From: an uncultured Candidatus Saccharibacteria bacterium
GTDB lineage: Bacteria; Patescibacteriota; DYJS01; CAYMEI01
Assembly (NCBI GenBank): GCA_964389605.1
Contig: CAYMEI010000003.1
Span: forward strand, 1 to 32,091
DNA length: 32,091 nt
Direction: 5' to 3'
Below the pieces are notes generated by a model that did no database searches, had not been told where the DNA came from, and worked only from the letters and a program-made list of their open reading frames with translations. The position numbers and the translations under genes were made by a program. Shown here piece by piece: positions 4,804-31,220 of this stretch (the first letter of the stretch is position 1; the number at the start of each line of letters is the position of its first letter).

Positions 4804-4992
4804 CTAGTTTAGATTGATAATAAACTTATTCAGATTTTCCTCAGATATGCGTATATTCTTACCTATTCTATAAGCCTTAAGCTTACCACTTTTAATGTAT
4901 CTATATATTGAAAGCTTAGTTATTTTAAGCTTCTTAGATACCTCCTCAACTGTATAAAAATTACTTTCCATTTTTCTATCACACTTATACAT
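4804..4992 (-). CDS. Excisionase-family / MerR-like helix-turn-helix DNA-binding protein
   Basis: YTVEEVSKKLKITKLSIYRYIKSGKLKAYRIGKNIRISEENL is the typical excisionase-family HTH pattern. Its ATG overlaps the upstream stop as TAATG. Its TAG stop is followed by CAG and then the recombinase ATG in the same frame. Confidence 0.75.
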   Translation of the reverse strand: MYKCDRKMESNFYTVEEVSKKLKITKLSIYRYIKSGKLKAYRIGKNIRISEENLNKFIINLN

Positions 4993-6128
4993 TAGTTATC
5001 ACTGATAACAATTTTTTCCGTTTCATAGTTTTCTACTCCATCAACTAGGCAATCGTACATTCCATATTTTTCAGTTATCATTGAGTACAATAGTTTTTTA
5101 CACCTTTTGACTATATCCTTACCATGCTTTTTACTGTAGTGCCTCTGAAGCAGTTTAAGCAGATGATCTTCCCCATCTTTCAGCATAATATTAATATACC
5201 CAGTATTAAGAATAGTATCGTTTAATTCTTTCTTACTGGATGCTTTTTCCAGCATACTGATATTATAAAAATCACCCATGTTCATAGACAGATGACTGTC
5301 AACCCCTTCCAGAAATAAAATCTGATTTAACATGCATTCCTTATATACAGTAATATCAAAAGCGTTTTCCAGTGTATTGTCCAGACCATTATCTTTAAAG
5401 AACTTGTCAACTTTACTCTTTTTGTACATCCTGTACTCAACCCTCAATATTTCTTTATCTTCTATATAATTCAACACATTTTTTATATGCTCACCCTCTT
5501 CCAGTGAACTGGTAAGACCCTTGCCTATTCTTTTGTTTAGCACATCAGAAGCCTCTTTTGATTTATTATAAAATATTATTTCATGCTGTTGATTACGAAA
5601 ACTACAGCTAAGGACATTCTTATTAATATACATCTTACTAGCTACCTGCAAATGACCACTTGGAGGGCAGATTTTGCTAATAGCATGTATTACGCAATCA
5701 GTTTTTTTCTGCCTCAATAGATAGTTCTTTGCATAGTGTAGCTGTGCAAGCGAGGAGTTAATTATTGCTTCTGGAGCAACATACAATCCATAGATACCCA
5801 GTGTCCTTGATAGCTTTGTACAAACTGCCATTGAGTCCTCTGGATCAGTCTCACTTACATTTTCACCAAACATAAGCTTACTCAAAGAAATATCTACATA
5901 CAAGTACTCTGTAATCTGCCCTGTATCTCTTATAACTCTTTGAGTTATTTCAAGCTTCGGATAGCACCCTGCCAGTACCTCTGTATCAGTCTTGCTTTTA
6001 AACCCTTTATTTTGCGTAAACTTTTTTGTCTTGGTTAGGCTACTGCCAACTGGTTTATATTCAGGGTAAAATGCCTTACGGTTCGTTACCTCAAAATTTT
6101 CTATCTGTAATACTACTGTATCAATCAT
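4992..6128 (-). CDS. Hypothetical protein; possible replication initiator (weak)
   Basis: 378-aa intact ORF, translationally coupled to the HTH gene. The only similarity cue is the N-terminus MIDTVVLQI..., reminiscent of gpII/CRI-type replication proteins (MIDW/FL...). This has not been verified. Confidence 0.55.
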   Translation of the reverse strand: MIDTVVLQIENFEVTNRKAFYPEYKPVGSSLTKTKKFTQNKGFKSKTDTEVLAGCYPKLEITQRVIRDTGQITEYLYVDISLSKLMFGENVSETDPEDSMAVCTKLSRTLGIYGLYVAPEAIINSSLAQLHYAKNYLLRQKKTDCVIHAISKICPPSGHLQVASKMYINKNVLSCSFRNQQHEIIFYNKSKEASDVLNKRIGKGLTSSLEEGEHIKNVLNYIEDKEILRVEYRMYKKSKVDKFFKDNGLDNTLENAFDITVYKECMLNQILFLEGVDSHLSMNMGDFYNISMLEKASSKKELNDTILNTGYINIMLKDGEDHLLKLLQRHYSKKHGKDIVKRCKKLLYSMITEKYGMYDCLVDGVENYETEKIVISDN

Positions 6129-6436
6129 TGCTTTAAATTATTATTAATCTTATCTCCAAATTCAGACATCAGGTACTTTATCAACTCACAAAACTGCACA
6201 GATGTATCGCTATGTTTGCCTTTAGCGACATCTTGCTTTTGTTTAACTTGAGGATTTTCCGACCTCTTTCCTCTGCCTTTGATTACACTGGTATTATTTA
6301 GAAGCAGTTCACTAAAAATTGGGATTTGTATTTAACCAACTGTAGGTACTTGATAGGTTATTTAGTGATGAGAGGGGGATGGTATTTCAAAAAGTTCAAC
6401 ATTTATTATATTTGTATAGTTTAATCACAGATTAAT

Positions 6437-6625
6437 ATGGATCACACAACAGTAAGACAAGCTATTGAAGAAGTCTTAAAAAATGATGACAGACTCTGGA
6501 ACGAAGATAAAACAGAGCTTAACCATCCGTTGCTTATGGATTTAGTAGAAAAAACTGATGAGATTCTAATTGATCTGCCACTTCGGGAAGAAGAAGTAAA
6601 CAATAAGTCAAAAAGTGATGTCTAA
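6437..6625 (+). CDS. Small ORF, possibly a remnant of a Mod N-terminal domain
   Basis: 62-aa ORF overlapping the mod start by 11 nt in another frame. VLKNDDRLWNEDKTELNHPLLMDLVEKTDEILIDL resembles N-terminal helices that, from memory, occur in some Type III-like methyltransferases. Confidence 0.3.
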   Translation: MDHTTVRQAIEEVLKNDDRLWNEDKTELNHPLLMDLVEKTDEILIDLPLREEEVNNKSKSDV

Positions 6626-8441
6626 ATATCAGAATTATACAAGAGACCAGCTTGTTCAGCTTTTGGAAGAGAAAGATAAAAACTCTGAAAAAAAGTATGG
6701 GCTTTTTTGGGACGAAGAGAGGGAGAGAGAAAAGGTGGTTGTGGAATGCGAGGATAATTTGCCAGTTTTGGAGAGGGTGGGAAGTAAAGAAATTAGAACA
6801 GGTGAAAGTGGACACAATCTTTTGATTGAAGGTGATAATTACCACGCCTTGACTGTTCTAAACTACACCCACAAAGAAAAAATTGATGTTATTTATATTG
6901 ATCCGCCGTATAACACAGGGAACAGGGATTTTGCTTACAATGACAGGTACATAGACCGAGAAGATAGTTTTCGTCATTCCAAATGGCTTAATTTTATGGA
7001 GAAGAGGCTAATTTTAGCCAAAAGATTATTGAGTGAAAAAGGGGTGATTTTTATTTCCATTGATGATAATGAACAGGCTTATTTAAAAGTTTTGTGTGAT
7101 GCGATTTTTGGAGGGGAAAATTTTGTTGCAAATATAATTATACAAAGCAACCCAAGAGGCTCACAATCAAGCAAGCATTTAGCAAATGTCCATGAATATC
7201 TTTTGTGTTATGCAAAAGCAAGTGATAAATTAAACTTAATAGGAGAAGATAAAAAAGATGATACAGTTCTAGAGTATAATTTAGTAGATAAGAAAGATGG
7301 TGAAGTTTTGAGATATAGGCTTCTAGGGTTAAGGCAAAGAGGTGGAGCATGGAAAAGAGAGGACAGACCTAAAATGTTTTATCCAATTTATATTGATCCG
7401 AAAACTGGAAATTGTTCTTTAGAACAAAATGATATTTTTACAGAAGTTACTTTACCCAAAAGACCAACTGGAGAAGAAGGAAGATGGACATGGTCAAAAG
7501 AAAAATTACAAAAAGATATAAAATTTTTAATTGGGAAAAAAGTAAGCAGAAGAGGGGAAGAAAACTTTTGGGATATTTTTAGAAAAGATTATTTGCTAAA
7601 TGATGATGGAGAGGTAAAAACCTCCAAGACAAAAACAATTTGGATTGAAAAAGAGTTAAATTATCAAAACGGAAGAACTGTATTAAAAAATGTTTTGAAT
7701 GCCGATGCTTTTGATTACCCAAAACCTGTAGAATTACTAAAAAGAATACTTAAAATTTCAAGCCAACCGAACTCAACTGTTCTTGATTTTATGGCAGGCA
7801 CAGGAACCACAGGGCAGGCAGTTTTGGAGCTAAACAAAGAAGACGGAGGGAATCGTCAATTTATTCTTTGCACCAACAACGAGCTAAATGGAGTAGGTAG
7901 CCAACTAGCTGAAAGTGAAAAACTAAAAACTAATAGTGAAAATTTTAATCCAGAACAGTTTGGAATTTGCCAAAGGGTAACTTATCCAAGGCTACAAAAG
8001 ATCATTCAAGGTTATAATAAAAATGGAGATGGTGAGTGGGTTGATGGTTTGGGTGGAAACTTGATGTATTTCAAGACTGCTTTTGTGCAGAGTAGCAACA
8101 ACAGAGACCAAGTTAAATTTGCTTTGTTGAACCAATGCACAGAAATGCTTTGTGTTAGGGAAGGAGCTTTTGATTTGCAAGAGGAGAATGAAAACTACAA
8201 AATTTTTATATCTGCCGACAAAAAGAGGGTGATGGGAGCTTATTTTGATTTTTTCAAGCTAGACCTAGAAGAGTTTGCAAGCAAGATAGCAGGTTTTGAA
8301 GGACGAAAAAGGGTTTATATTTTTTCAGAAGACAAAAAGGTAGATAAGACACTTTTTAGAGAAATTCCAAACTGCACAGTTGAAGCCATCCCCGAACCAA
8401 TTTTAGAAATTTACAAAGAATTAATAAAGTTAAGTAAGTAG
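6615..8441 (+). CDS. mod: Type III restriction-modification methyltransferase (Mod), N6-adenine/N4-cytosine beta class
   Basis: Motif IV, VIYIDPPYNTG, lies upstream of motif I, LDFMAGTGTTGQA. NLLIEGDNYHAL precedes motif IV. The gene lies directly upstream of a res helicase-nuclease. Confidence 0.9.
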   Translation: MMSKYQNYTRDQLVQLLEEKDKNSEKKYGLFWDEEREREKVVVECEDNLPVLERVGSKEIRTGESGHNLLIEGDNYHALTVLNYTHKEKIDVIYIDPPYNTGNRDFAYNDRYIDREDSFRHSKWLNFMEKRLILAKRLLSEKGVIFISIDDNEQAYLKVLCDAIFGGENFVANIIIQSNPRGSQSSKHLANVHEYLLCYAKASDKLNLIGEDKKDDTVLEYNLVDKKDGEVLRYRLLGLRQRGGAWKREDRPKMFYPIYIDPKTGNCSLEQNDIFTEVTLPKRPTGEEGRWTWSKEKLQKDIKFLIGKKVSRRGEENFWDIFRKDYLLNDDGEVKTSKTKTIWIEKELNYQNGRTVLKNVLNADAFDYPKPVELLKRILKISSQPNSTVLDFMAGTGTTGQAVLELNKEDGGNRQFILCTNNELNGVGSQLAESEKLKTNSENFNPEQFGICQRVTYPRLQKIIQGYNKNGDGEWVDGLGGNLMYFKTAFVQSSNNRDQVKFALLNQCTEMLCVREGAFDLQEENENYKIFISADKKRVMGAYFDFFKLDLEEFASKIAGFEGRKRVYIFSEDKKVDKTLFREIPNCTVEAIPEPILEIYKELIKLSK

Positions 8442-8446
8442 AGGTT

Positions 8447-9166
8447 ATGTCAGATAATTATCATTTAATCGAAATTAGACACAGTGAATATTATGGAAGT
8501 AAAGAACCCCTCATGTTTACAAAAGCAACAATTGATAAGCACGCTGAGGAATGCCCTGTATGTGCTAGAAAAATATCACCGATTTTTATTTGGTCAGGAC
8601 TGAATCATAAAGGAAATTTGGATGTAGTTTATAGGTGTACAAGTTTAGAATGTGATGAATTTTTTATTAGTCACTACCAAAATACACATACTCAGATATC
8701 TGGAAAAATTTGTTATTCGTACAAATTTCTAAACTCGCAACCAAAATTTTTTAGACCGCAAGATTTTAGTGCAGAAATACAAGATATTTCCTCAGAGTTT
8801 GTAGCTATTTTTAATCAGGCAAGAGAAGCGGAGAGTAAAAATTTAGATCGGATAGCCGGTGTGGGGTATAGAAAGGTTTTAGAGTTTTTAATAAAAGACT
8901 ATTGTATCTCTTTAGTTGAAGAAGATAAACAGGAGTCTATTCGTAAAAAATTTTTAACAAAGGTTATTAAAGAAGATTTAGATAATCAAAAAATAGCAAC
9001 TTTTGCTGAAAAAGCTGTTTGGTTAGGTAATGATGAAACTCACTATGTAAGGGTGTGGGAAGATAAAGACATGAAAGACTTAAAACTTTTGATTGATATA
9101 GTTGTTGATGCACTTGACTTTGAGTTGAAAGGAAAAAAATTAAATGAATCTTTTAATCGAGAATAA
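8447..9166 (+). CDS. Zinc-ribbon plus DUF4145-like protein inserted between mod and res
   Basis: N-terminal Cys pairs (CPVCARK ... YRCTSLECDEFF). The C-terminal helical region AGVGYRKVLEFLIKDYC ... AVWLGNDETHY ... LKLLIDIVV fits the DUF4145 pattern (R/K..lE ... lgN..aH). It starts 5 nt after the mod stop and ends 3 nt before the res start. Confidence 0.65.
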   Translation: MSDNYHLIEIRHSEYYGSKEPLMFTKATIDKHAEECPVCARKISPIFIWSGLNHKGNLDVVYRCTSLECDEFFISHYQNTHTQISGKICYSYKFLNSQPKFFRPQDFSAEIQDISSEFVAIFNQAREAESKNLDRIAGVGYRKVLEFLIKDYCISLVEEDKQESIRKKFLTKVIKEDLDNQKIATFAEKAVWLGNDETHYVRVWEDKDMKDLKLLIDIVVDALDFELKGKKLNESFNRE

Positions 9167-9169
9167 CCT

Positions 9170-10663
9170 ATGTCCCTAAAATCACTCAAAACCTACCAAG
9201 AAAAAGCAGTTGAAGAGCTAATTTACAAGTCCAAGCTACTTTTGGAAAAAGATCAAGACAAGCGGACTTTGGTTTTTCAAGCCCCGACTGGAAGCGGAAA
9301 GACTTTTATGATGTCTAACTATATCCGAGAGTTGATCGATGAACTGGAGAGAAATGTCTGTTTTATTTGGGTGAGTATTGGCAAAGGGGATTTGCATATT
9401 CAAAGCTATCAGTCCATCAAAGAAGAACTTTTTTATTTTCCAAATGTCTGTCTTCTTGAGCAAGAATATTTTGGACACAAAGCCCATATTCAAAACAACG
9501 ATGTAGTTGTTGTTAATTGGGAAAAACTGCGAACCAAAGACAGAGAAACGGGAGACTGGAAAAACAAACTGATGAGAGACGGTGAACTGTGGAACTTTAG
9601 GGAACTGATTGAAAACACCAAAGAACTTGGAAAGTTGATTGTGATGATAATTGACGAAAGCCACTCAAACTCAACCAGTGAGAGAGCTTTGGAACTGCGA
9701 GACGAAATTGTAAAAGCAGATTTGACGGTGGAAATGTCCGCCACTCCAGTTTTACGAGAAGGTAATTATCAAGAAAAGGTGGTTGTAGAGCCAACGGATG
9801 TCATCAACGAAGGAATGATCAAGAAGGAAATCATCATCAACGAAAATTTAGATCAGTTTTCAGAAGACGAGCTAACCAGCCAAGAATTGATTTTGGAAAG
9901 TGCCTATCAAAAAAGGCTAGAGCTAAAAGAACAATACGAAAAAGCCAATATCCGAGTTAATCCTTTAGTTTTAATCCAACTACCGACAGGAAACGAGGGG
10001 GAAGACAAAAGGGACTTTGTAGAGCAGTTTTTGGCAAAAAAAGGCATTACTTACGACAACGAAAAATTAGCCGTTTGGTTAAGTGAGGAAAAGGTCAATA
10101 ACGAAAAAAGTCTTGTTACTCCAAACGACAGCAAAGTAGAATTTTTGATTTTCAAACAAGCCATAGACACAGGGTGGGACTGCCCAAGAAGCCAAATTTT
10201 GGTTCGTTTCCGTGAAATCCGAAGTGTCACCTTTGAAATCCAAACAGTAGGACGGATCTTGAGAATGCCAGAAGCCGAGCATTACGAAAACGAGAACTTA
10301 AACCGTGCCTTTGTTTATCTCAACACAAGCGAGTTTTCAGTCAATCAAGAGACTTACAACCCCAACATTATCAAGTCGATCAGTGTCAAAAGAAGTGAAA
10401 AATATCAACCTTTACCGCTAACTTCTTACTACCGAAACCGTTTTGACTATGGAGATATAACTTCTAGCTTTTATCGGAGTTTAGAAAAAGTTTTGTGTAA
10501 TTATTTTGGCTTAGAAATAGGCAAACAAGAGTTTTTTGAACAGAACAAGGCTAAAGTTAAAGAAAAAATTGATTTGGTTGATTTGGCTGGTAAAGACGAG
10601 ATAATTTTGAATCGAGAAATCAAGGCAGAACTCTTTGACCAAATCACAGAGGAAAAAATCTAG
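9170..10663 (+). CDS. res: Type III restriction enzyme Res subunit, helicase part (ends at an in-frame TAG)
   Basis: Walker A VFQAPTGSGKTF and motif II IIDESH, followed by helicase C-terminal motifs (IDTGWDCPRSQIL, QTVGRILR). TAG 10661-10663 is in the same frame as 10664..11458. Confidence 0.85.
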   Translation: MSLKSLKTYQEKAVEELIYKSKLLLEKDQDKRTLVFQAPTGSGKTFMMSNYIRELIDELERNVCFIWVSIGKGDLHIQSYQSIKEELFYFPNVCLLEQEYFGHKAHIQNNDVVVVNWEKLRTKDRETGDWKNKLMRDGELWNFRELIENTKELGKLIVMIIDESHSNSTSERALELRDEIVKADLTVEMSATPVLREGNYQEKVVVEPTDVINEGMIKKEIIINENLDQFSEDELTSQELILESAYQKRLELKEQYEKANIRVNPLVLIQLPTGNEGEDKRDFVEQFLAKKGITYDNEKLAVWLSEEKVNNEKSLVTPNDSKVEFLIFKQAIDTGWDCPRSQILVRFREIRSVTFEIQTVGRILRMPEAEHYENENLNRAFVYLNTSEFSVNQETYNPNIIKSISVKRSEKYQPLPLTSYYRNRFDYGDITSSFYRSLEKVLCNYFGLEIGKQEFFEQNKAKVKEKIDLVDLAGKDEIILNREIKAELFDQITEEKI

Positions 10664-11458
10664 GGTGAGCAAAAAATCCAAGCAGGACTTTCCCAAAATG
10701 ACCTCTTTTATACTTTTGAGAACTTAATCAAAAAGAATTTACAGGGATTTGCTCCCAAGCGTTCAATTCCAATAATCAAAAACTCACTTTATAGATGGTT
10801 TGCTCTTTATTTGGATATAATCCCGACTGTAGATAATGGAGCGATTTTTACTCAAAATATAATCTTGAATAACGCCGAAACCTTTGACAGGCTATTAGAT
10901 CAAACAGTGAGAGAATACAAACCAGTCAAAGAAAAGGAGATTGAAGCCAAGATCGAAGAAACGGAAAGCTGGGACGAAAACTGGGAAATTGCCAAAACTA
11001 GAAACTACAACCCCAACACTTACAAAAAATATAACTACCAAAAAAGCCTTTATCAGCCTTGTTATTTGAATTTTGACAGTCAAATTGAACAGGATTTTGT
11101 AGAATTTTTGGATAAAAAAGAAAGTGTAGTTTGGTGGTGGCAAAACGGAAACGAACATTTGCAAGATAATTTTGGAATCAAGCACAGCAAAGACAAAACT
11201 TTTCAGCCTGATTTTCTAGTTTTGTTTGAAGATGGACGAGTTGGCATTTTTGATACTAAGGCAAGCGGACAAAATGAAGATGACAACAAATCCAAAGCCG
11301 AAGCCTTGCAAGACTACATCCAAAAAGAAAACCAGAAAGGCAAAAAACTTTTTGGTGGTTTAGTTGTAGAAGAAAACGGACATTTTAGAATCAATCAAAA
11401 ACCCGAATACAAAGGTTTTAAGGAATCTTTGGAAGATTGGGAGTTTTTAGAGGTTTAA
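10664..11458 (+). CDS. res: Res subunit, C-terminal PD-(D/E)XK nuclease part (same frame as 9170..10663)
   Basis: The frame stays open immediately after TAG 10663; the track calls 10811..11458. FQPDFLVLFEDGRVGIFDTKA provides the PD...(D/E)xK nuclease motif expected at a Res C-terminus. Confidence 0.7.
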   Translation, partial: GEQKIQAGLSQNDLFYTFENLIKKNLQGFAPKRSIPIIKNSLYRWFALYLDIIPTVDNGAIFTQNIILNNAETFDRLLDQTVREYKPVKEKEIEAKIEETESWDENWEIAKTRNYNPNTYKKYNYQKSLYQPCYLNFDSQIEQDFVEFLDKKESVVWWWQNGNEHLQDNFGIKHSKDKTFQPDFLVLFEDGRVGIFDTKASGQNEDDNKSKAEALQDYIQKENQKGKKLFGGLVVEENGHFRINQKPEYKGFKESLEDWEFLEV

Positions 11459-11480
11459 TCCCCAGAATAAACACTTACCC

Positions 11481-12176
11481 CTACTGTTTCTTGTTCATTC
11501 TATCTGGAGCAACTGCTGATAAACTACTAACAGTAGGGTAAACAATAAACACCCCCTGCTTTATGGCAAATAGATTAAAGCCAAAACACTCTTTTGTTTT
11601 CTTGTTGATAGACTTAATAGCACCTCTTAAATGCCCTTCATCTGTACTATCGGGACTATCTTTACTGTATACCTTACCTGCCAGATCATTAATATCTACC
11701 CTCTCTCCAAACCCATAATATTTAATCATTTGATCACAAAGTCTGGATTCTTGGGTATCTGGTTTAATATTACATACAAGATCGTAAAAGAATATCTTTC
11801 CGTTCTCGCTATCATAGAACAGTATGTTATGGAATATATTTTCAATTCTCTGGTAAAGATCACATAGAAACTCAGTTACTATCGAAGCGTGCTTTGCAAA
11901 AGTTAGTGCCTTAGGATTTACACCAAATCTATCCACTTCATCTTTTTGAGGCTGAAGGTATTTAAACTTATTTATGACTATTAAAAGAAACTGATTTACT
12001 CCAACCATCATTTCACCCACTTCCTTAAAGACATTGTTAACTAACTCTGTAACCATTTCAGCTTGTTCGTTTATAGCATTCTGATTAACATAATCATCAA
12101 TAAAGCGTTCCCCGTCCGTATGTATAATTAGAGTGAATTTTCTTTTACCTGTGTTGATCTGGAACCTGCTCACCAT
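11481..12176 (-). CDS. Hypothetical protein, possible C-terminal OmpR/PhoB-type winged-helix domain
   Basis: 231-aa ORF. The C-terminal stretch LCDQMIKYYGFGERVDINDLAGKVY...GHLRGAIKSINKKTKECFGFNLFAIKQGVFIV follows the trans_reg_C pattern (hI..lR.Kl....i.tv.g.GY). This is a weak assignment. Confidence 0.5.
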   Translation of the reverse strand: MVSRFQINTGKRKFTLIIHTDGERFIDDYVNQNAINEQAEMVTELVNNVFKEVGEMMVGVNQFLLIVINKFKYLQPQKDEVDRFGVNPKALTFAKHASIVTEFLCDLYQRIENIFHNILFYDSENGKIFFYDLVCNIKPDTQESRLCDQMIKYYGFGERVDINDLAGKVYSKDSPDSTDEGHLRGAIKSINKKTKECFGFNLFAIKQGVFIVYPTVSSLSAVAPDRMNKKQ

Positions 12177-12246
12177 GTAATTAAACTTCTTGGCAGTGTC
12201 TAATTCACTTGGTGATATACATTCAGATTCTTTGATTATAGTAGTT

Positions 12247-12591
12247 TTATTTATCTACTGTTATATGGTATAGATAGTATTGTCTTTCTTCAGTTTCTCC
12301 TGTTTTTTGATTAATACAATTAATATTGTCTATCAGTGTCTTGCCAATAGCAATATTGTTCCTGGTTAGCAGATCTCTAGCTGTACCCCACTTGTCTTTA
12401 TCTTCAGTTAGATGGAACTCATAGTCATAACCAGATGCTCCCAAATCTTCTAGTGCAATATTAATTTTATCTGCAGCCTCCTGATGCTTAACTTGTGCAC
12501 TGTTTATTACATTATGCTCAATCTTGGCTCCACAAGTAATCAAATATTCCAATCTATTGAGGGCAACTTTACTTGATACTCTAAGTCTCAT
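12247..12591 (-). CDS. Hypothetical protein
   Basis: 114-aa ORF with an ATG start, upstream of and co-oriented with 11481..12176. No recognisable motif. Confidence 0.45.
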   Translation of the reverse strand: MRLRVSSKVALNRLEYLITCGAKIEHNVINSAQVKHQEAADKINIALEDLGASGYDYEFHLTEDKDKWGTARDLLTRNNIAIGKTLIDNINCINQKTGETEERQYYLYHITVDK

Positions 12592-13080
12592 CTCTAATTA
12601 AATATTAAGCATAATAAAACATATACAAGTACACTAAAGATATAGAGTATGCACTCTACACCATTTATTTTAAAAGTGGCTATAAGACTCTATTTAAGGC
12701 ATTTAAATTACTAAACCATAAAAAATATACTACTTTAAATAAAAAGTGTCTTAAATGGCAATGTACATTGTCTGGTAAATGACATGGTGGCGTAATCCCC
12801 AAACACCTACCCCCCATATATATAATTCTGCGGGAATATATACCCCATATATTACTTCTTACTGGTATTACCATAAAACTTAGACTCTTCTAACACGCTA
12901 TGATTCTATGGAACTATTCACTTAATAAACTTATGCAATAATAGAGAATTGACTATTCTTAAATCAGGGGAAAGTACAATCAGATATAACTTCAGGAGAG
13001 TTAGTAAGAGTAATCAAGTCTGGCAAATAATTTAATACTCAGGATTATCTGTCTTCAGATTAATGATATAAAATTCTAAA

Positions 13081-13215
13081 TCTCATATCTACTCACACTC
13101 CACACAAGGTTTTAAATGCACTAAGTTTTTCAAAGTCTAAGGTTCGAACTTTGAGGTATTTTGCGAGCATATCACCCCTTATTCTTCTTAATAAAGTGAG
13201 CCTACTATACTATCC
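13081..13215 (-). repeat. Right (inverted) copy of the repeat at 1489-1600
   Basis: The reverse complement of 13081-13176 aligns with 1507-1600 at about 85% identity. It lies 63 nt upstream of the Type IIG start. Confidence 0.75.
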
Positions 13216-13278
13216 AGTACCGCCACCCCTACCAACTGTTAACACAACCTTTATAACAAAACTGAATCAAGCTTAACA

Positions 13279-14697
13279 TTGAGCAGTATTGTAAAAACTT
13301 ACATCGAAAACATTAATAAAGAACTTAAGAGCGGGCATGCACGCGAGCACTCTTACCGACCGTACTTAAAAGAGCTTCTGGAGCAGATAAGCCCAAAGAT
13401 CAGTGCCATAAATGAGCCGAAACAGCAGAAAGTTGGTGCGCCGGATTTTGTACTGTTAAAAGGCAAAACACCTGTTGGGTATATTGAGGCAAAAGATGTT
13501 GATATAAACCTGGATAAAGAGCTGAAAACCAGCAACCAGATAAAACGGTACTCTGTACTTGGCAACCTGTGCTTCACCAACTACCTCGAGTTTATCTTTT
13601 ACGGTAACCAGACCGAGTACGACCGTGTTGAGATAGCAAAACTAGTAAACGGCAAACTGGAGTTTTTAGAGCAGAACTTTACCCACCTGCACAACCTGCT
13701 TAAAGATTTCTCTAATCGCTACGGTCTGACTATTGCCTCATCTAAGCAACTCGTGTCGTTAATGGCAGATAAAGCCCGTTTACTTAAAGAAACCACACTT
13801 AACGCCCTGAACGACGAAGACGATTCCGAGAACTCTGTTACCCGTCAGTTCCATGTTTTTAGAAAGATGCTCATAAAAGACCTGACCCCAGAGCAGTTTG
13901 CAGATATTTACGCCCAGACTGTTACCTACGGAATGTTTGCAGCCCGTTACCACGACAAAACTCTCGAAACATTTACCCGCGACGAAGCAAACACCCTGCT
14001 ACCTAAATCTAATCCGTTTCTGCGCAACTTTTTTCAGTCAATTGCCGGGTACAACATAGACGAGCGGATTGTATGGATAGTTGATGACCTTGCTGAGCTT
14101 TTCAGCCATGTAAATATAAAAAGCCTCCTTGAGAACTTTGGTAAAACCACCCAGCGAAGCGATGTTATAATCCACTTCTACGAAACATTTCTTGCCGAAT
14201 ACGATCCGCTCCTCCGTAAAGCCCGCGGTGTTTACTACACACCTGAGCCGGTTATTGGTTATATAATCCGCTCTGTGGACAGTATCCTGAAATCTGAGTT
14301 TGGAATCTCTACCGGTATTGCCGATACCTCTAAGGTTGAAGTAAAAAAGGAGATTAACGGCAGGAAACAGAAAGTTTTAGAACATCGGGTGCAGATTCTG
14401 GACCCTGCTACCGGTACAGGAACTTTTCTGGATCATACCATAAAGCATATTTACTCCAGCTACTTTAAGGGGCAGGAGGGGTTGTGGCAGACATTTGTTG
14501 ATGAGCATCTAATCCCCAGGCTTCACGAGTTTGAGTTGCTTATGGCAAGTTACGCAATGGCACACCTGAAACTTGACATAACACTCAGTGAAACCGGCTA
14601 CAGCTTTAAAAAAGGTTCGGGGAAACGGCTTGGGGTGTACCTTACAAACTCACTTGAAGAGGCGGAGATTATGCACAATAACCTTTTTGCTACCTAG
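13279..14697 (+). pseudogene. Type IIG/ISP-like fused endonuclease-methyltransferase, N-terminal part (ends at in-frame TAG)
   Basis: N-terminal PD-(D/E)XK motif (GAPDFVLL ... GYIEAKD). SAM motif I ILDPATGTGTFL. After TAG 14695-14697 the same frame continues ...LSDESLAANEVKKQKPIMVVIGNPPYSG, with NPPY at 14764-14775. Confidence 0.8.
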
Positions 14698-14885
14698 TTG
14701 TCGGATGAGAGCCTGGCGGCAAACGAGGTAAAGAAACAGAAGCCGATTATGGTGGTGATTGGGAATCCACCGTATTCGGGAGTTTCCACAAATAACGGAA
14801 AGTGGATAATGGATCTGATTGAGGAATATAAGTATGTAGATGGCAACCATTTTAAGGAAAAAAGCACTGGCTAGGAGACGACTAT

Positions 14886-16919
14886 GTGAAGTTTATTCGT
14901 TTTGCAGAACACTTTATAGAGAAAAACCAGGAAGGGGTGCTTGCTTTTATCACAAACTATGGCTACTTGGATAATCCAACCTTCAGGGGAATGCGTCAGC
15001 ATTTAATGAGAACTTTTAATAAAATCTACCTACTTGATCTACACGGAAACAGTCTGAAAAAAGAAACCAGTCCAGATGGCTCAAAAGACGAAAATGTTTT
15101 TGATATTCAGGCAGGTGTGTCAATTATACTTGGCGTTAAAACTAACACTGGAAAATCTAATAAATGTGAGGTTTACCATAGCGATCTGTTTGATAAAAGA
15201 GACGACAAGTACAGTTTTCTGGAACAAAACTATCTAGGAACAACTAATTGGGTGAAATTATCGCCGCAAGCTCCGTACTACTTTTTTGTTGAGAAGGACT
15301 TGAGATTAGAAGACGAGTATGCTCAAGGTGTAAAATTAAATGAACTGTTTCCGGTTAATACGACTGGGATTGTTACCATGGGAGACAGCTTTATTATTGG
15401 AAGTAAAGAGTATGTTGAGCAAAACACTAGATATCTTCTTTTTAATGACGTGTCTGAATCTGAACTAAAAGAAAGTTTTGGGCTTGGCAAGAACTATGCA
15501 AAATGGGTTATTCAGAATAAGGACAGAATACATTTTTCATCTAACAGGATTACTCCCATTGAATATAGACCATTTGATACTCGATACACATATTTTGATG
15601 GTAAGTTGGTTTGGAGGCTTAGAGAGAAAGTTATGCAACATATGCTTAACGGTGAGAATTTGGGGTTGATCTCAGCTAGGTCAAATAAATCTCAAAGAAT
15701 GGATCACTTTTTTATGACTGATAAGATAATGGAGACTAAGTGTGGGGAGTCAACAACACAGTCAGCCATTTTCCCCCTCTACTTCTACCCACCCAAAAGG
15801 GAAGAGGAGAAGGAGCTGTTTGGGGAGGGTAAAAACACCCCGCCCTACGGGCACCCCTCCCGCACCTTATTAGGGCGGCTTACGCACGCCCAAAGCTGCT
15901 TTAAGGGGAACTTAGTGCGATCTTCTACATATTCAAATGAAAGTAGCAAAGCCAATTCCCCTTCTCAGAAGGGGTGGACGCTGAAAGCGGACGGGGTAGT
16001 CCCTGATCAGAAGGGGTGGCAGGCGGAGCCTGACGGGGTAGTCAAAAAAACAGACTGGTACAATCTGCCATTTAATCCAAAACTAAAAGATAAAGCCAAG
16101 GAGCTAAGAAAGGCAGGAAACCTCTCAGAGGCACTCTTCTGGAATAAAATAAAAAACAGACAGCTAGCTGGTTTAGATTTTGACCGACAAAAGATAATCG
16201 GAAACTACATTGTAGATTTTTACTGTTCTGAAATAGGCCTTGTAGTAGAAATTGATGGAGAGAGTCACAGTTATAAAGGAGAGTATGATGAACAGAGAGA
16301 TGAGTTCTTAAAAAGTCTGGGGCTGACTGTAATCCATCTGAGTGATAAAGAAGTTAAGCAGAATCTGGATTTGGTAGTTGAAGGGTTGGTCGGGTGGATT
16401 GAAGAGGTAATCATAAATCAAGACTTTAACAGTACTCGTATTCAGAGCAGTAACAAAAACACCCCGCTCTTCACACCCGAAGATGCTTTAGAGGGGAACT
16501 GCTACTTCACCCCAACAGATCTTTTAGACTATATTTACGCTGTACTCCACTCACCCACCTACAGAGAGAAATATAAAGAGTTTTTAAAAATAGATTTTCC
16601 AAAAGTTCCAATAACAGAAGATAAAGAAAAGTTCTGGAAACTGGTTGGGCTTGGGAAAGAGCTGAGGCAGTTTCATTTACTGGAACACCCGGAAAGCAGT
16701 GAGTTTATTACACAGTTCCCGGTTTCAGGAAGCAACAGAGTTACAGATACACCAAAGTTTAGCCCAAGTATTGAAAATAGAGAGATTGGGAGCGTATTTA
16801 TAAACGAATCACAGTACTTTAAAGGAGTACCAAAATCTGTATTTGAGTTTTTTATAGGCGGTTACCAGCCAGCACAGAAATGGCTTAAAGACAGAAAAGG
16901 GAGGGAGGTGCTTTTTTAA
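14886..16919 (+). pseudogene. Type IIG/ISP-like enzyme, C-terminal part carrying an inserted DUF559 cassette
   Basis: This frame is open from 14856 (KKHWLGDDYVKFIRFAE...). It is joined to the upstream part by a frameshift in the A6 run 14858-14863. The conserved C-terminal block is DYIYAVLHSPTYREKYKEFLKIDFPKVP ... GGYQPAQKWLKDRKGRE. After TAA 16917-16919 the frame continues DILHYQKNIVAL... to TAA 17004-17006. Confidence 0.8.
15831..16499 (+). mobile_element. GC-rich hairpin-module plus DUF559 (Vsr-like) endonuclease cassette, in frame within the host gene
   Basis: The DUF559 signature is LRKAGNLSEALFWNKIKNRQLAGLDFDRQKIIGNYIVDFYCSEIGLVVEIDGESHSYKGEYDEQRDEFLKSLGLTVIHLSDKEV. It is flanked by modules repeated at 30732-31180. 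AAAAACACCCCGC occurs at both 15831 and 16455. Confidence 0.6.
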
Positions 16920-16991
16920 GATATTTTACACTACCAGAAAAATATAGTTGCACTTTTCAGTACAGAAAAAATAATGAAAGAGGTTGATAGC

Positions 16992-18458
16992 CTACCCCTC
17001 CCTTAAGGCATTTATAGGATCAGTCCTGGAAGCTCTGGTTACTGGGATAAACCCTCCAAGCATACCCGCCAGAATACAAATACTAAAAAGTATCAAAACT
17101 CCTCCTGCAGGAAATCCCAAAAATACAAATGCGGGTTTGCCATAATCAAGAGAATTACCCAGAATTGCAATAGAGTAAAACGCATCATCGCCAAAAAATA
17201 CAGAAAGCAGGACAACTACAAGGACTGCTAAAATAAGTCCCATAATAAACCCTGCCAGTACAATTAAAAAAGTAAAACTAAAAAATATCTTTTTTATATC
17301 TCTCTTTTGAGCTCCAATTGCTCTAAAAACACCTATTTCTCTTTTAGAATCAGAGGCAATTTTACTGATTGTAGTGGCAACCAGTATTGATGAAACTGCC
17401 AAAAGCACTCCACCAATCACAAAAAAGACATTCTGAGCAATTCTTATAGGTTCTGCAAAAATATCAAAAGCGGATCTTAGCTGGTACTTGGAGCCCATCC
17501 CCAGAAAAATATTTGACGAAGCAAAAGATTCCAGATCTGCCTGAGATTCAAACTCAACCAGATAGTTTATGATTTTATCATCAAAAAGTTTTTCTACTTC
17601 TTTGTCTTCCATTGCCCAATTGGGTATAATTATAGAATCCTGCAAAGGAGATCTATTGAGCGGAAAGTCTGCATTAAATCCAACTACAATAATTTCCACT
17701 TCTGTGTCTTTACTGTTAAAAGATTCTCTGGAAGGTACTGGGTCTATGCCGTTCTGCCCGGTGATTGTTGCAAAATCCAGCCATTTTAACCGGTAGGTCT
17801 TACCTAGATATTCTGGTATCAGCTCCTGAAATTTATTATACAAGCCTTCTCTACCGTCCGATTCCATAATGTTATTAGCAATGGACATGTACCCTAAAAT
17901 GCTTAGTGGGCTGTCTTCTATATCTTTAACAGCTTCAAGAAAAAACAGGTAGTTTCTGGGCATTATAACCGGTATTTTACCATCGTACTCATCTTCAAAC
18001 GAATAATCCTGGTAAATGTAATCCTGAACTAAAAAGTCTGGAGATTGTACCATCTGAAGACCATTATTTATTAGAATGTCATTATTTTCAATTTCTGTAT
18101 CATTCTGCACAAAAAGAAATTTGTCCTGTGTTTTATCAACTGCATAAATATCTTTTGGACCAAATTTTTTTATCTGATCTTTATATTCTGAAATACTTTT
18201 TGGAGTTTTTTTCTGCAAGTCGGCATCTTGCAGATTTTGATCTGACGAAGCAAAAAATTGCTCAACTGCCAGAAATCTGTCTGAGTTAGAATTTTTGAAT
18301 GCCTTTGAACCTAGGTCTAAAACACCAGTAACCGCAAGCATAACAGTCATTATTACAAGTATGCTCATAGAAACAACTAAAGAAGAAAAAATACTTCTGC
18401 CTTTTCGGGTCTTAAATTTAATTTTTGCCAGTTTAAAAGAATCTTTAAAGTTTATCAT
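16992..18458 (-). CDS. ABC transporter permease, FtsX/MacB-like
   Basis: N-terminal transmembrane helix, a large extracytoplasmic domain and three C-terminal transmembrane helices. The family-typical end is ...RASRTDPINALREG. Its ATG overlaps the ATPase stop as ATGA. Confidence 0.85.
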   Translation of the reverse strand: MINFKDSFKLAKIKFKTRKGRSIFSSLVVSMSILVIMTVMLAVTGVLDLGSKAFKNSNSDRFLAVEQFFASSDQNLQDADLQKKTPKSISEYKDQIKKFGPKDIYAVDKTQDKFLFVQNDTEIENNDILINNGLQMVQSPDFLVQDYIYQDYSFEDEYDGKIPVIMPRNYLFFLEAVKDIEDSPLSILGYMSIANNIMESDGREGLYNKFQELIPEYLGKTYRLKWLDFATITGQNGIDPVPSRESFNSKDTEVEIIVVGFNADFPLNRSPLQDSIIIPNWAMEDKEVEKLFDDKIINYLVEFESQADLESFASSNIFLGMGSKYQLRSAFDIFAEPIRIAQNVFFVIGGVLLAVSSILVATTISKIASDSKREIGVFRAIGAQKRDIKKIFFSFTFLIVLAGFIMGLILAVLVVVLLSVFFGDDAFYSIAILGNSLDYGKPAFVFLGFPAGGVLILFSICILAGMLGGFIPVTRASRTDPINALREG

Positions 18459-24668: not shown

Positions 24669-24706
24669 AATTTATATCCAGTAACATGAAGGCTAATATA
24701 AAAAAT
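24669..24706 (-). other. 3' strand of the 23S precursor processing stem
   Basis: Complementary to 29103-29141 as blocks of 14 bp and 16 bp around an internal loop, bracketing the mature 23S. Confidence 0.7.
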
Positions 24707-24809
24707 TTAAAGTTATTAGTACCTCACGGCTCAGTACATTACTATACTTACACCTAAGGCCTATCAACCAAGTGTTCTTCTTGGAACTTAAGAAACCTTT
24801 TCAGGGCTA

Positions 24810-24840
<31 letters not shown>

Positions 24841-25612
24841 TAATCCGAACATAGCTACCCAGCGCTGCCACTGGCATGACAACTGGTGCACCAGAGGTTC
24901 GTTCATTCCGGTCCTTGCGTACTAGGAACAAGTTCCTTCAGGTTTCAAAACTACCACAGCGGATAGGGACCGTACTGTCTTGCGACGTACTGAACCCATC
25001 TCACGTACCACTTTAACGGGCGGACAGACCGACCCTTGGGAGCTTCTTCACCCCCAGGATGTGATGAGACGACATCGAGGTGCCGAGCCTCGCCGTAAAT
25101 GTGAACTCTCGGGCGAGACTAGCCTGTTACCCCCAGAGTAACTATTAGCCGATAAGCACTACCCCTAACCAAATAGAGATAGAAGATCACTAAATCCGTG
25201 TTTCCACTCTGCTCACTGCGTAAAGTTTGCAGTCAAGCCAGTTTATGCTTTTATACTTTCACTTGGATTGCCATCCCAAGCAAACTGACCTTTGAACGCC
25301 TCCGTTATCTTTTAGGAGGCAACCTCCCCAGTTAAACTCCCCGCCTGACAATGTCCTCTTTGAGTTAGATTTCACTTCTCTGGAAAGTTGGTATTTCACT
25401 GACGGCTCCACTGCCCCCGAAAGAGCAGTCTCAGTGCCTCCCAACTATACTACGCATCCAAAGTGCGAAACCAATGACAAGTTAGAGTAAAGCTTCTGGG
25501 GTCTTAATGTCCTGCTGTGGTTACCCGGCATTTGCACCGGGCGTGTAATTTCATCGAGTTCCTTGGAGAGACAGCGCTCAGATGGTTAAGCCATTCGTGC
25601 GGGTCAGAACTT

Positions 25613-26337
25613 CATAAATTGCTGAAAAGCTTTTTCCTTTTTTTCAAAAGGGATCAGACTATATCTTCACCTTGAAATAAGCTTTAGGAGATCTTCCTTT
25701 TGATATTTCCCAGTGCCACTCAAATTACTCTTGAAGGCAACTTCTAATATCTCCTTTATTTTAACGGGACTGTGATGAAAATTCTGCTTCATCATCAAAC
25801 AAACTTGTCTGAAGTTATCAAAATCGTTTTTTTTATTTGTCATCAAAGAATATCTCAAGAAGTGCGGAATAATTTTATCATTTAAATCCTTTAGATTTCT
25901 TACTTCATATTTATAAGTATTGTCTTGTTTTGAAAATCTGATTCCTCCACAAGAAAAATGATCCTTCATTATTTGCAGCACATTTAAGCTTCTTTGACTT
26001 TGCGACACGGAAAAACCTAGTTTAACTTCTACTTTAACATTTAATTTTTCTCTAAAATTAAATGATACTGAAAAGCATCCTTCTCCATCTACAAATCCTG
26101 TTATATAAGAATTAATCTCCATGACTCATACTTGATTTTATCTTCAAGGGCTGGCGTATTACGCAAATTGCGTCTCACCTTTCGGCTCAGTCGTTACGGG
26201 TCACTTTAATCATAATTAATTAAAAATTAAATAAACCAAAATGTTCCCTCGGTATTACCATATTATTAAACTTAGGCTTCACCGATATTAGCCAGGTTAC
26301 TTAATGACTGTCACCAGTCATTTCAGGCAAGTTCTTT
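25613..26337 (-). mobile_element. Group I intron at 23S position 1951 (E. coli numbering)
   Basis: The 5' exon ends ...GUCAGGU and the 3' exon resumes AAGUUCUGACC. The intron ends in G. The internal guide GCCUG (nt 10-14 of the intron) pairs with exon CAGGU, giving the U-G pair at the splice site. Confidence 0.8.
25667..26122 (-). CDS. LAGLIDADG homing endonuclease (single-motif, I-CreI-like) in intron L1951
   Basis: Reads MEINSYITGFVDGEGCFSV... and IIPHFLRYSLMTNKKNDFDNF. 151 aa. Confidence 0.85.
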   Translation of the reverse strand: MEINSYITGFVDGEGCFSVSFNFREKLNVKVEVKLGFSVSQSQRSLNVLQIMKDHFSCGGIRFSKQDNTYKYEVRNLKDLNDKIIPHFLRYSLMTNKKNDFDNFRQVCLMMKQNFHHSPVKIKEILEVAFKSNLSGTGKYQKEDLLKLISR

Positions 26338-26357
26338 ACCTGACAAGGAATTTCGCT

Positions 26358-27135
26358 CAATTGTTTCTTAACTAAACTATGTTAAGCGGATAGAATTTGC
26401 GATTCTACCTCCTGCATATCTCTATGCAGATCGGACTATCTCTTCATCCTTATTTTTATTATCAATTTTCTTAAGTATTTCTTCTTTAGCTTCCATTGTA
26501 ACTTGTTTGCTTCGTTTATTCATAGTTGAAGAAATATCTATTATTTTAACGATGCCTTGCAAATCCAGATGATATTTTTTATTTATCATTAGATTGACTA
26601 CTTTGGAAAACTTAAGAAAATCCAATTGTTTCTTGGTCTGCAATTTATACTTGAAAAAGAATGGTATAACTTTTTGATGTAAGAAATTTATATTTCTTAT
26701 TCTAAGCTCAAACCTGTCTTCATGATTAGATCTTACCACTCCAGAACCAAAAAAATCTCTGATCCTGTACAGTAGTTGCACATCTATTTTGTGCTGAACT
26801 ATCCTGAATTCGGGTAAAACTTGATAACCAAGAAGAGTATGATTATTCTTATTTATACCTACATAAAAAGTACCTTCTCCATCAGTAAAACCTGCAATCC
26901 AGTTTGAATCCAGCTTTTTCATTTTTATTTATAAAAGGATGTCTGGCGTATAGTCTCTGAGGATCCTGCAAGATTGAACTTGCAGTTTCCTGCTGATTGT
27001 CTGTATCAAGATGATTTTTACTTTTAAGCTGAACTATAAAAACAACTTAATGAGTACACCTTGCCTAACCAGATGTTTCAGCATACAGCCAGATGTTTAC
27101 CTGATTATTACTAACCAGGGAGGCAGCAAAATTCT
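26358..27135 (-). mobile_element. Group I intron at 23S position 1931 (E. coli numbering)
   Basis: The 5' exon ends ...GCUAAGGU and the 3' exon resumes AGCGAAAUUCC. The intron ends in G. GCCU near the intron 5' end can pair with exon AGGU. Confidence 0.75.
26422..26922 (-). CDS. LAGLIDADG homing endonuclease (single-motif) in intron L1931
   Basis: Reads LDSNWIAGFTDGEGTFYV... and VIPFFFKYKLQTKKQLDFLKF. 166 aa. Confidence 0.85.
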   Translation of the reverse strand: MKKLDSNWIAGFTDGEGTFYVGINKNNHTLLGYQVLPEFRIVQHKIDVQLLYRIRDFFGSGVVRSNHEDRFELRIRNINFLHQKVIPFFFKYKLQTKKQLDFLKFSKVVNLMINKKYHLDLQGIVKIIDISSTMNKRSKQVTMEAKEEILKKIDNKNKDEEIVRSA

Positions 27136-30354: not shown

Positions 30355-30731
30355 CTCTACTCATCTTTTAAAAGTTAAAAAATAAAAATAAAATGTTCAG
30401 GCTGATTTGATATAAAAACCTTTCAAAAAAATACTGAATTGTTGCTGTGTATTTATCTTTATGGTGTAATTTTTTCCATTCTACACGGTCCCACTGTCCG
30501 CTTCTTTTGCTTCTCCCCTGCTGGTATGGTCAAGATTGTGGTCCAATAAGCATCCCCGGATAATATTAAGCGTTTCCTGTATAGAACCTGCACCAGACAC
30601 GCTTAACCTTAACCCTCCCGTGTTTCTATTGTAGCTTGTTTTATCCCTGCAGTCTACTTCTCTGGTCGCTCCTTTTTTTCTTTTCTTACCTCTCCCAACA
30701 CTCACTCCAACACTGTTTTAATCTTTATTAC

Positions 30732-31180
30732 GGGGGGGGCGGGGTTCTCCCGCCCCCCCCTACAATTATATAATAGTAGCGAAGCTAATTCCCCCTCCCG
30801 TAACCTTAACAGGCGGCTAAAGCACGCCTTAAGCGGTTACACCTTAACAGGCGGCTAAAGCACGCCTTAAGCGGTTACAGGGGTGGACACCGAAGGTGGA
30901 CGGGGTAGTCCCTGATCAAAACCTGAAAAACACCCCGCCTGGCAAGCCAGGCACCCCTCTACAGAGGGGAACTTAGTGCGATCTTCTACACACTCAAGTG
31001 ATAGTAGCGAAGCTAATTCCCCTCTAAAGCAGCTTTGGGTGTGCGTAAGCCACCCCAATAAGGTGCGATAGGGGTGGCAGGCGGAGCCTGACGGGGTGGA
31101 TTAAAACAGTGACGGGCGGACACGGGTCCGCCCCTGCAATAATAATACAACTGGATATTAAGGGCGGGAGAACCCCGCCC
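30732..31180. repeat. Mosaic array of GC-rich hairpin modules (REP/BIME-like), same family as 15831-16050
   Basis: Bounded by a 12-bp G/C hairpin (30732-30760) and a 7-bp hairpin (31162-31180), each followed by TACAAT(T/A)ATATAAT. The internal modules match 15831-16050 in both orientations (coordinates are given in the findings). Confidence 0.8.
30803..30878. repeat. Perfect tandem duplication, 38 bp x 2
   Basis: ACCTTAACAGGCGGCTAAAGCACGCCTTAAGCGGTTAC occurs at 30803-30840 and again at 30841-30878. Each unit holds the hairpin AGGCG-9nt-CGCCT. Confidence 0.9.
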
Positions 31181-31220
31181 TTACAATAATATAATTAGAT
31201 GTTAAAGATAAAATATATAT

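Follow-up and report, generated by a model that had tools for sequence, protein, structure and literature searches.

In a contig of an uncultured Candidatus Saccharibacteria bacterium (CAYMEI010000003.1, positions 1 to 32,091, hereafter the window), a gene for an MmeI-like Type IIG restriction-modification (R-M) enzyme is interrupted in frame by a segment that encodes a DUF559 nuclease domain between GC-rich hairpin modules. We read this segment, at 15831-16499, as most likely one copy, by now partly decayed, of a selfish cassette that is widespread, is bounded by hairpin units and has its nuclease read through as part of the host protein. We put the probability that these cassettes are selfish elements of this kind at roughly 75%. 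The original prediction, made from the sequence of the window alone, had offered two explanations, namely that a selfish cassette had inserted in frame into a defense gene or that the host enzyme had captured the nuclease domain. The cassette part of the first explanation is supported by the data below but a simple insertion is not, because ~37 host residues, a conserved 'RxPNLNxEIVxxIAxxLGLxF' segment, are gone exactly at the insert. The second explanation is disfavored, as discussed below.

The make-up first attributed to the insert was borne out. Its 669 nucleotides (nt), a multiple of 3 and stop-free, interrupt Type_ISP_C in frame within a 677-amino-acid (aa) open reading frame (ORF; 14886..16919), leaving two Type_ISP_C match stretches (Pfam, E = 2.8e-72) with a complete DUF559 domain (E = 5.6e-30) between them. 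The modules at the two ends are rich in GC (54.5% in the first part and 51.1% in the last, compared to 38.1% in the nuclease part and 37.4% in the whole window). As had been proposed, the nuclease domain lacks an ATG of its own, there being no in-frame ATG across the insert and a single in-frame GTG at 15915, and the left-end repeat returns at the right end: AAAAACACCCCGC occurs exactly three times in the window, at 15831, 16455 and 30926, while AGGGGAACT is found at 15904, 16492 and 30965. The last position in each series belongs to an intergenic cluster of units 15 kb away, where the modules had been said to recur and which we locate at 30726-31191. In alignments with uninterrupted homologues, similarity ends at ~15788-15806 and restarts at ~16443-16512. 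Beyond what had been predicted, we find that the modules are terminal-inverted-repeat units, that the right end of the window copy is truncated and that the host gene is a pseudogene.

Within the insert the modules resolve into discrete units (Table 1). The left terminal unit of the cassette, translated as NSPSQKGWTLKADGVV..QKGWQAEPDGVV, has its inner half duplicated in tandem (16012-16043), and units of this type also border the DUF559 relatives closest to it (L011, L007 and L029). The unit types of the window copy, ACTACCCC/CCCCTTC on the left and AACACCCC/CCCCTCT on the right, are likewise those of its nearest DUF559 relatives. Upstream of the left terminal unit lies a further unit in R orientation with a second small module (15852-15915, the reverse complement of 31013-31076) nested in its outer loop. 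The right terminal unit looks like a deletion derivative of this R-orientation type. An exact-match scan of metagenome contigs with the window-specific junction GGGGAACTTAGTGCGATCTTCTAC gave 0 matches.

The domain between the units belongs to the DUF559 / Vsr-like PD-(D/E)XK nucleases: the DUF559 profile (PF04480) is matched at full length (positions 2-104 of 109; aa 399-501, nt 16080-16388), the D..E-x-D..H..D..R residues are in place, and the window copy has all 25 invariant columns of a 24-sequence family alignment in which it is included. In an AlphaFold2 model of the insert, the nuclease core reaches a predicted local distance difference test score above 90 and the module-encoded flanks only 39-59; in this low-confidence part of the model the flanks appear linker-like. 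A sequence search of solved structures returned 3HRL, a structural-genomics 'endonuclease-like protein' (E = 1e-20), a weak match to 3R3P and no others. Foldseek also placed 3HRL first (template modeling (TM) score 0.91), then 3R3P (TM score 0.71, probability 1.0), which is the catalytic domain of I-Bth0305I, a homing endonuclease, and further down PvuRts1I/AbaSI-type nucleases and Vsr. A survey of PD-(D/E)XK proteins groups Vsr, DUF559 and I-Bth0305I in one clade and assigns no function to DUF559 (PMC3424549). The subfamily is large, with 20,174 cluster representatives at E <= 1e-3, and 32 of the best 150 representatives have the domain internally (>100 residues upstream, >80 downstream).

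The association of modules with DUF559, whose absence elsewhere would have counted against the original prediction, proved abundant, both in other host genes and in other phyla. We sampled relatives by a six-frame scan of one genome per species, using the DUF559 alignment as query, and obtained 578, of which the best 80 (59-69% identity) span more than 15 phyla. In its intact form the cassette is bounded by two inverted ~42-nt units, each a double hairpin, with a DUF559 ORF of ~110 aa located between them. The unit consensus is ACCACCCC-(variable hairpin)-CACCCCTCC-NNN-GGAGGGGAAT(T). In L001, L003 and L004, for instance, the left arm reads AATTCCCCTCC-NNN-GGAGGGGTG-(small hairpin)-GGGGTGGT and the right arm is its reverse complement, ACCACCCC-(small hairpin)-CACCCCTCC-NNN-GGAGGGGAATT. 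When the two flanks of each copy were compared with one another, terminal inverted repeats were found in 54 of 70 testable copies (score >=1.4 times the best of 20 shuffles). As to the arrangement of the units, 46 of the 52 adjacent unit pairs that enclose DUF559 are ordered L...R with their tips outward, with 4 LL, 2 RR and no R...L pairs. The units carry constant AAT/ATT tips, which are ambiguous as a target-site duplication.

The hairpins themselves are maintained. Across the 229 units that we counted in 590 kb, the inner hairpin has 121 distinct sequences and is always paired. An ungapped alignment of 64 units has 99% of its cells paired and 37 double-change cells versus 5.7 in shuffles, with none of 500 shuffles reaching the observed value, and the hairpin structure is thus kept through compensatory sequence change. 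Read by eye, none of the six reading frames of the consensus unit contains a stop, and any frame that happens to be open serves for the individual units, giving translations rich in Pro, Gly and Ser. The differing peptides that flank the nuclease domains are one DNA unit in different reading frames.

A different explanation of the same repeats is that the hairpin units are the mobile agents, similar to repetitive extragenic palindromic (REP) sequences or Rickettsia palindromic elements (RPEs) and spread by another enzyme or by replication or repair, so that DUF559 would be a passenger or a resident gene flanked by units much as RAYT genes are by REPs. Single and tandem units are indeed common, single units lie inside host ORFs as RPEs do (P0002, P0011, P0013, P0026, P0039 and L004), further small modules nest in the unit loops of the window, and both the unrelated coding palindrome collected by an HsdR linker and the cassette lengths described below can be counted in its favor. 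We nonetheless consider this explanation unlikely. It does not account for the outward arrangement of units around DUF559, nor for the co-segregation of the inverted-repeat variant with the DUF559 clade, which holds even inside one gene, where the two cassettes carry different variants (a QueA gene in L053). Further, ORF-less L-35 nt-R pairs keep the ATG region and the first codons of the ORF, as expected of internal-deletion derivatives, and no other candidate enzyme recurs beside the units in the loci that we examined, by inspection only and not systematically.

We measured frame openness for 81 independently sampled DUF559 copies and found 34 to be embedded, their frame extending without a stop over at least 100 codons upstream and 60 or more downstream; another 31 are short free-standing ORFs and 16 are cut by a contig end or fused on one side only. 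The two-sided open frame across relatives exceeds chance. Free-standing copies start with M-R-x-T-x-x-Y, 9-10 codons before LPYNP and directly after the left unit, and have their own stop before or exactly at the right unit. The Met of this motif is found in 14 of the 31 free-standing copies but in 0 of the 34 embedded ones. The cassette exists in two forms, a free-standing form with its own ATG and stop and a read-through form that has neither and lies in frame in a linker of the host.

The hosts show a strong bias towards R-M genes. Those confirmed by Pfam are full-length HsdR, HsdS, Type IIG enzymes (Eco57I/TaqI_C and MmeI-like) and N6_N4 methyltransferases, together with QueA, PriA and a LipA-like radical-SAM protein outside R-M systems. 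Type III Mod is also among the in-frame hosts, and protein matches add RhuM, TrpF, DUF1016 and Bro-N as contexts. A mainly phage-borne cassette was ruled out, as a search of 2.9 million viral contigs yielded just 7 relatives. Multiple occupancy was observed as well: the QueA gene mentioned above (L053 2549-4606, from Candidatus Enterousia sp.) holds two DUF559 cassettes in a 686-codon open frame, and a protein of 520 aa (P0361) has three DUF559 stretches. Many DUF559 matches are no more than a few hundred bases away from a contig end (L018, L032, L037, L041, L043, L068, L074 and others), a position to be expected if the cassette or its units are multi-copy repeats, which would break short-read assemblies.

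Gain and loss are indicated by the comparison of filled and empty alleles. Rather than an ancestral architecture shared by all close homologues and free of modules, we found DUF559 within Type_ISP_C in 18 of the 120 best homologues of the window ORF, always with GC-rich modules, while most of the 120, including the most similar ones, have no insert. The inserts occupy two sites: site A, which is that of the window, between ...LGLxFxxEK and F[AST]PIDLLDYIYAVLHSP, and site B, between ...GDNxVxKPxF and GxVYINETQYF. Their left flank peptides are NSPPLEGCPxGGVV or FPSxGGVxxGRGG and their right flank peptides TTPxxGHPSxGGE, PPRPxGTPPxEGN or NHPALKGTPPxEGN. At site A, an empty allele (P0041) and a filled one (P0100) share 83% DNA identity over ~1 kb, and the cassette replaces an 18-nt linker. 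For the window's own gene, no empty allele was found in the protein collection, in which no uninterrupted homologue exceeds 56% identity. In another Type IIG homologue (P0042, residues ~95-130), the peptide IPAQAGIH...RLRGNDE reads as though yet another widespread GC-rich repeat had entered the gene in frame and were being translated.

A second case is provided by HsdR, for which we used a filled allele minus its cassette as query; the 120 best homologues are 84-96% identical over their full length and 96 of their linkers could be parsed. A plain 13-aa linker is present in 63 of these 96 alleles and the DUF559 cassette, of 156-177 aa, in 10. An unrelated 16-aa coding palindrome (RRDVACNVS type) occupies the linker in 16 alleles, a 12-aa single-hairpin footprint (LPPLEGN, FPSMEGN) in 2, and other short inserts of 17-30 aa in 5. 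The four main linker states were compared at the DNA level. The coding palindrome corresponds to AGAGACGTTGCATGCAACGTCTCT, with RRDVACNVS as its peptide, and the single-hairpin footprints measure 24 nt; these states were seen in alleles 85-96% identical (entries L094, ~1216-1254, L095, which is P0270, and P0268). P0270 also has an in-frame GIY-YIG domain at a different HsdR site. Both Type IIG site A and the HsdR linker therefore display the presence/absence pattern of homing endonuclease genes.

Trees of the DUF559 domain indicate that site A is held by at least four separate lineages and site B by two. The window DUF559 clusters with copies from other hosts, away from other Type IIG copies. 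The QueA and PriA copies cluster together within the alphaproteobacteria, and two methyltransferase copies nest in the HsdR clade.

These comparisons bear directly on the possibility that DUF559 is a domesticated accessory domain, that is, that R-M enzymes captured a Vsr-like nuclease or nickase for restriction or repair and that the GC-rich flanks are linkers. In line with such a role, the hosts are mostly R-M or defense proteins, none of the 42 embedded copies has lost any of the 6 putative catalytic residues or contains an internal stop (in loci that were preselected for similarity), the HsdR-borne clade is coherent and old, and filled full-length genes look intact, such as P0040 (1074 aa, 20 contigs) and the HsdR of L015, which has all its domains. 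However, the domain is absent from most close alleles and comes and goes among them (Type IIG at ~83% DNA identity, HsdR at 84-96% protein identity), and it also resides in housekeeping and other genes such as QueA, PriA, TrpF and the LipA-like gene. A protein linker needs no coding by inverted repeats with compensatory hairpin pairing, whereas these cassettes have inverted repeats at the DNA level; moreover, free-standing copies with the same inverted repeats exist, as do ORF-less pairs, and the several lineages at site A speak against capture. Given this pattern, we regard capture by the host as improbable, and a selfish cassette as the better explanation of the window insert.

Still less probable, and in our view very remote, is that the insert is an intein, a self-splicing intron with a homing endonuclease or an assembly chimera. 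The insert does lie in frame inside a conserved gene and contains a nuclease domain, and its end, ...EGN followed by Cys, superficially resembles an intein C-terminal junction. Yet DUF559 is its sole Pfam match with no Hint or intein domain, the AlphaFold2 model consists of the nuclease core and low-confidence flanks only, the insert starts with K-N-T-P, and the N|C junction varies among copies (EGN|F, GGE|F, EGN|L). With respect to introns, Rfam matched nothing in the insert, whether the whole window was searched at the gathering score or 15700-16600 at E <= 1, the latter returning a chance serC match only, although 23S group I introns of the same window were detected. A group I or group II intron was dropped after this null result, the insert also being open in the host frame. 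A chimera is contradicted by an identical 677-aa product from an independent 4968-nt ENA contig and by the recurrence of the architecture in hundreds of assemblies. The 23S rRNA gene of the window (24697-29110, minus strand) spans 4414 nt compared to a model of 2925 nt. Sub-threshold RF00028 matches place two or more group I introns in it, and a LAGLIDADG endonuclease is encoded in each (ORFs 25667-26122 and 26422-26922). Together with ~37% GC and best matches of Parcubacteria type, this suggests a CPR/Patescibacteria-type genome rich in selfish elements.

Several results weigh against a mobile cassette. The sampling is biased, since the 80 loci were taken for their similarity to a query that was itself embedded. 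The window cassette does not have a significant flank-to-flank inverted repeat (best score 16 against a shuffled maximum of 21), which we attribute to the truncated right unit and to a clade-specific asymmetry of L and R units. Among the outer-hairpin loops of 40 pairs, 8 match as inverted repeats, 6 match directly and 26 do neither, so the outer hairpin could either belong to the inverted repeat or be a palindromic target that was duplicated. The tip-to-tip length of embedded copies is 0, 1 or 2 modulo 3 in 4, 9 and 13 cases, by which we rejected a cassette length in multiples of 3; the frame would have to be restored by variable junctions or by selection. The HsdR cassettes form a coherent clade whose DUF559 is ~75% identical while the host motor domain is ~82% identical, and the HsdR pattern is also compatible with a single old insertion that has traveled with a gene moving horizontally. 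This clade is about as old as its host lineage, and its residence there may have been long and perhaps even of some benefit to the host. In the filled and empty alleles of Type IIG and HsdR, a clean target-site duplication was not seen, as the neighboring linker residues differ. No mobility event was observed among the copies compared, and cutting by DUF559 is putative. To our knowledge, a PD-(D/E)XK nuclease alone is incapable of strand transfer, which leaves moves to new genes unexplained.

We can outline how a selfish cassette of this kind might persist. The host protein would be made with an extra, independently folding nuclease domain, so the nuclease would be expressed as part of the host protein and require neither an intron nor an intein. 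Within a host-gene family, the nuclease would break ORF-less alleles and repair would copy the cassette in, which amounts to homing, and the flanking linker would be co-converted. The differing linker residues at filled and empty sites are compatible with such co-conversion but are no proof of it. The conserved units may supply portable homology or a landing pad, and recombination or slippage between the palindromic outer hairpins could remove the cassette and leave the single-hairpin footprint. Rare moves to new genes would survive only if they were in frame and in a permissive loop. This specific mechanism of homing with a landing pad is tentative, and we hold it to be somewhat less probable than its failure. 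Slightly better placed, although still a little short of even odds, is the more general hypothesis that DUF559 proteins are the nucleases of an unrecognized class of prokaryotic mobile elements, hairpin-bounded and translated through within genes, with the nuclease acting on its own units or on ORF-less alleles.

The gene in which the window copy resides was recovered by tblastn with uninterrupted homologues as three aligned pieces, which together extend over 13285-17000 and correspond to an MmeI-like Type IIG enzyme. These homologues are ~1050 aa long, are named type ISP or N-6 DNA methylases in their sources and have the Pfam domains N6_Mtase, MmeI_Mtase, Eco57I and Type_ISP_C. The prediction of an R-M gene as host thus holds for the domains, with HSDR_N, N6_Mtase, the NPPY motif (14764-14775) and Type_ISP_C all present, but not for an intact enzyme in a single ORF. 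An in-frame TAG (14695-14697) replaces a conserved Trp and the homologue alignment continues across it, a -1 frameshift within an A-run at ~14852-14858 takes the gene from frame 1 to frame 3, and an in-frame TAA (16917-16919) precedes the end of the host reading frame at ~16994-17000. With these three lesions and the loss of ~37 residues, the host gene has become a pseudogene since it received the cassette at site A, and its decay is recent. An alternative genetic code behind the in-frame stops was ruled out by inference, given the combination of TAG, TAA and a frameshift and the normal appearance of the other window ORFs with code 11.

Table 1. Features of the host gene, the insert and the intergenic unit cluster in the window
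Feature	Position	Strand	Basis or remark
Host N-terminal part (nuclease and N6-methyltransferase start)	13285..14697	+	Pfam N6_Mtase, HSDR_N
Host gene, frame 1 stretch	14698..14862	+	tblastn high-scoring segment pairs, frame +1 to 14862, frame +3 from 14844
Host Type_ISP_C, first part	14863..15830	+	Pfam, tblastn
R-orientation hairpin unit (AAAAACACCCCGCC..CACCCCTC..AGGGGAAC)	15831..15911	+	
42-nt spacer	15912..15953	+	recurs with both neighboring units at 30973-31014, block 90% identical
Cassette left terminal unit, AATTCCCCTTC-TCA-GAAGGGGTGG-(hairpin)-ACGGGGTAGTC	15954..16043	+	
DUF559 (Vsr-like PD-(D/E)XK) nuclease domain, own ATG absent	16044..16454	+	conserved core 16065-16388
Right terminal unit, truncated and rearranged, AAAAACACCCCGC..TGCTTTAGAGGGGAAC	16455..16499	+	translation KNTPLFTPEDALEGN
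Host Type_ISP_C, second part (FTPTDLLDYIYAVLHSPTYREKY...)	16500..17000	+	Pfam, tblastn
Intergenic unit cluster without nuclease ORF	30726..31191	.	single-stranded DNA fold z = -9.2

The intergenic cluster includes a 59-nt block that is 90% identical to the insert modules. It contains an L unit (30787-30915) into which two 38-nt modules are nested, followed by an R unit at 30926-30972, a spacer (30973-31014) and another L unit with a nested module (31015-31103). Its L-10 nt-R part (30787-30972) is an ORF-less pair resembling a MITE (miniature inverted-repeat transposable element). The 'R unit - spacer - L unit' block of the insert recurs at 30926-31103, and therefore a two-element junction has been copied whole. 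The cluster is bracketed by a G/C-run inverted repeat (30726-30755 and 31162-31191). At 30803-30878, the loop of a unit contains a 38-nt hairpin module twice over in perfect tandem, and thus small modules nest within each other.

A second R-M system adjoins the host gene, with an N6_N4 methyltransferase (6615-8441) and a ResIII helicase (9170-10663) in a Type III-like arrangement and a weak RnlA-toxin-like ORF (8447-9166) between them; the pseudogene is therefore located in a defense island. An inverted repeat of ~91 nt (~90% complementary; 1515-1605 and 13076-13167) brackets 11.5 kb that contain a tRNA-Gln and the Type III-like system and that end ~110 nt before the Type IIG pseudogene. This repeat could mark the ends of an island or an invertible segment.

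If our interpretation is correct, the cassette would represent a third strategy of homing-type nucleases beside introns and inteins, in which a nuclease gene may occupy essential and defense genes unspliced, through harmless translation. DUF559, a very large family without known function, would gain a role that can be tested, that of a selfish element's nuclease, with the single units and unit pairs as non-autonomous derivatives of the element. Low-complexity peptides that are common in bacteria (NSPPLEGCPxGGVV, FPSxGGVxxGRGG, TTPxxGHPSxGGE and HPALRAPLxRRG) could all be explained as one DNA unit in different frames. In HsdR, Type IIG and Type III enzymes, the linkers are hot spots at which coding palindromes and nuclease domains are gained and lost, which matters for annotation, for classification of the REBASE type and for enzyme engineering, where they offer permissive insertion sites and natural linkers.

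The original prediction knew of no mobile-element class with this architecture, and in the searchable full-text literature, which leaves subscription-only papers outside its coverage, we likewise found no description of one or of a DUF559 cassette with hairpin inverted repeats. Several known systems share some of its features. RPEs are small palindromic repeats that are inserted in frame in unrelated genes, translated and tolerated, as described in a review (PMC10969869, citing Ogata et al. 2000). The units of the cassette are likewise in-frame translated palindromes in unrelated host proteins; however, RPEs have no enzyme gene and are limited to Rickettsia, whereas the cassette has a nuclease ORF, spans more than 15 phyla and favors R-M genes. 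In the REPIN-RAYT system, inverted GC-rich hairpin repeats lie on both sides of an enzyme gene, and many ORF-less singlets and doublets are present elsewhere in the genome (PMC3116915), much as the cassette combines an enzyme between inverted hairpin repeats with many ORF-less repeats. The enzymes differ, RAYT being an HUH/Y1 single-strand transposase that is intergenic and has its own start and stop, while the cassette has a Vsr-like PD-(D/E)XK enzyme, bears no RAYT and is translated within a host protein in ~40% of copies. Similarly, the cassette resembles inverted-repeat DNA transposons and MITEs in its terminal inverted repeats, its ORF-less deletion derivatives and its many host contexts, but DUF559 is the only domain that it encodes (Pfam), no DDE, HUH, serine or tyrosine transposase is present, and a target-site duplication is not demonstrable.

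Closer in their biology are the homing systems. Inteins are also in-frame selfish insertions in conserved genes that are translated with the host and often have a nuclease, but the cassette lacks a Hint domain and conserved splice-junction residues and apparently stays in the mature protein. The EDxHD/Vsr-like nuclease family has been described from fractured genes (Dassa et al. 2009; PMC2677866), and homing endonuclease genes such as that of I-Bth0305I share with the cassette a Vsr-like fold and presence or absence at fixed sites of conserved, horizontally mobile genes. Known homing endonuclease genes lie in introns or inteins or free between genes, whereas the cassette has no ribozyme and no Hint domain but has hairpin inverted repeats and read-through in the host frame. 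Because the cassette does not conform to the tested defining features of the known classes, we consider it new in kind; the conservative alternative would be a variant of homing-endonuclease or MITE biology. The nearest conceptual precedent, and the sole recent similar case, is the ShiLan insertion in phage DNA methylase genes, which does not splice, leaves the host frame open, has evolved in a homing-like manner and encodes an endonuclease (PMC11855218). The ShiLan endonuclease is an HNH enzyme that uses another frame, from a GTG to a stop of its own, and hairpin inverted repeats were not described for it, whereas the nuclease of the cassette lies in the host frame without a start of its own.

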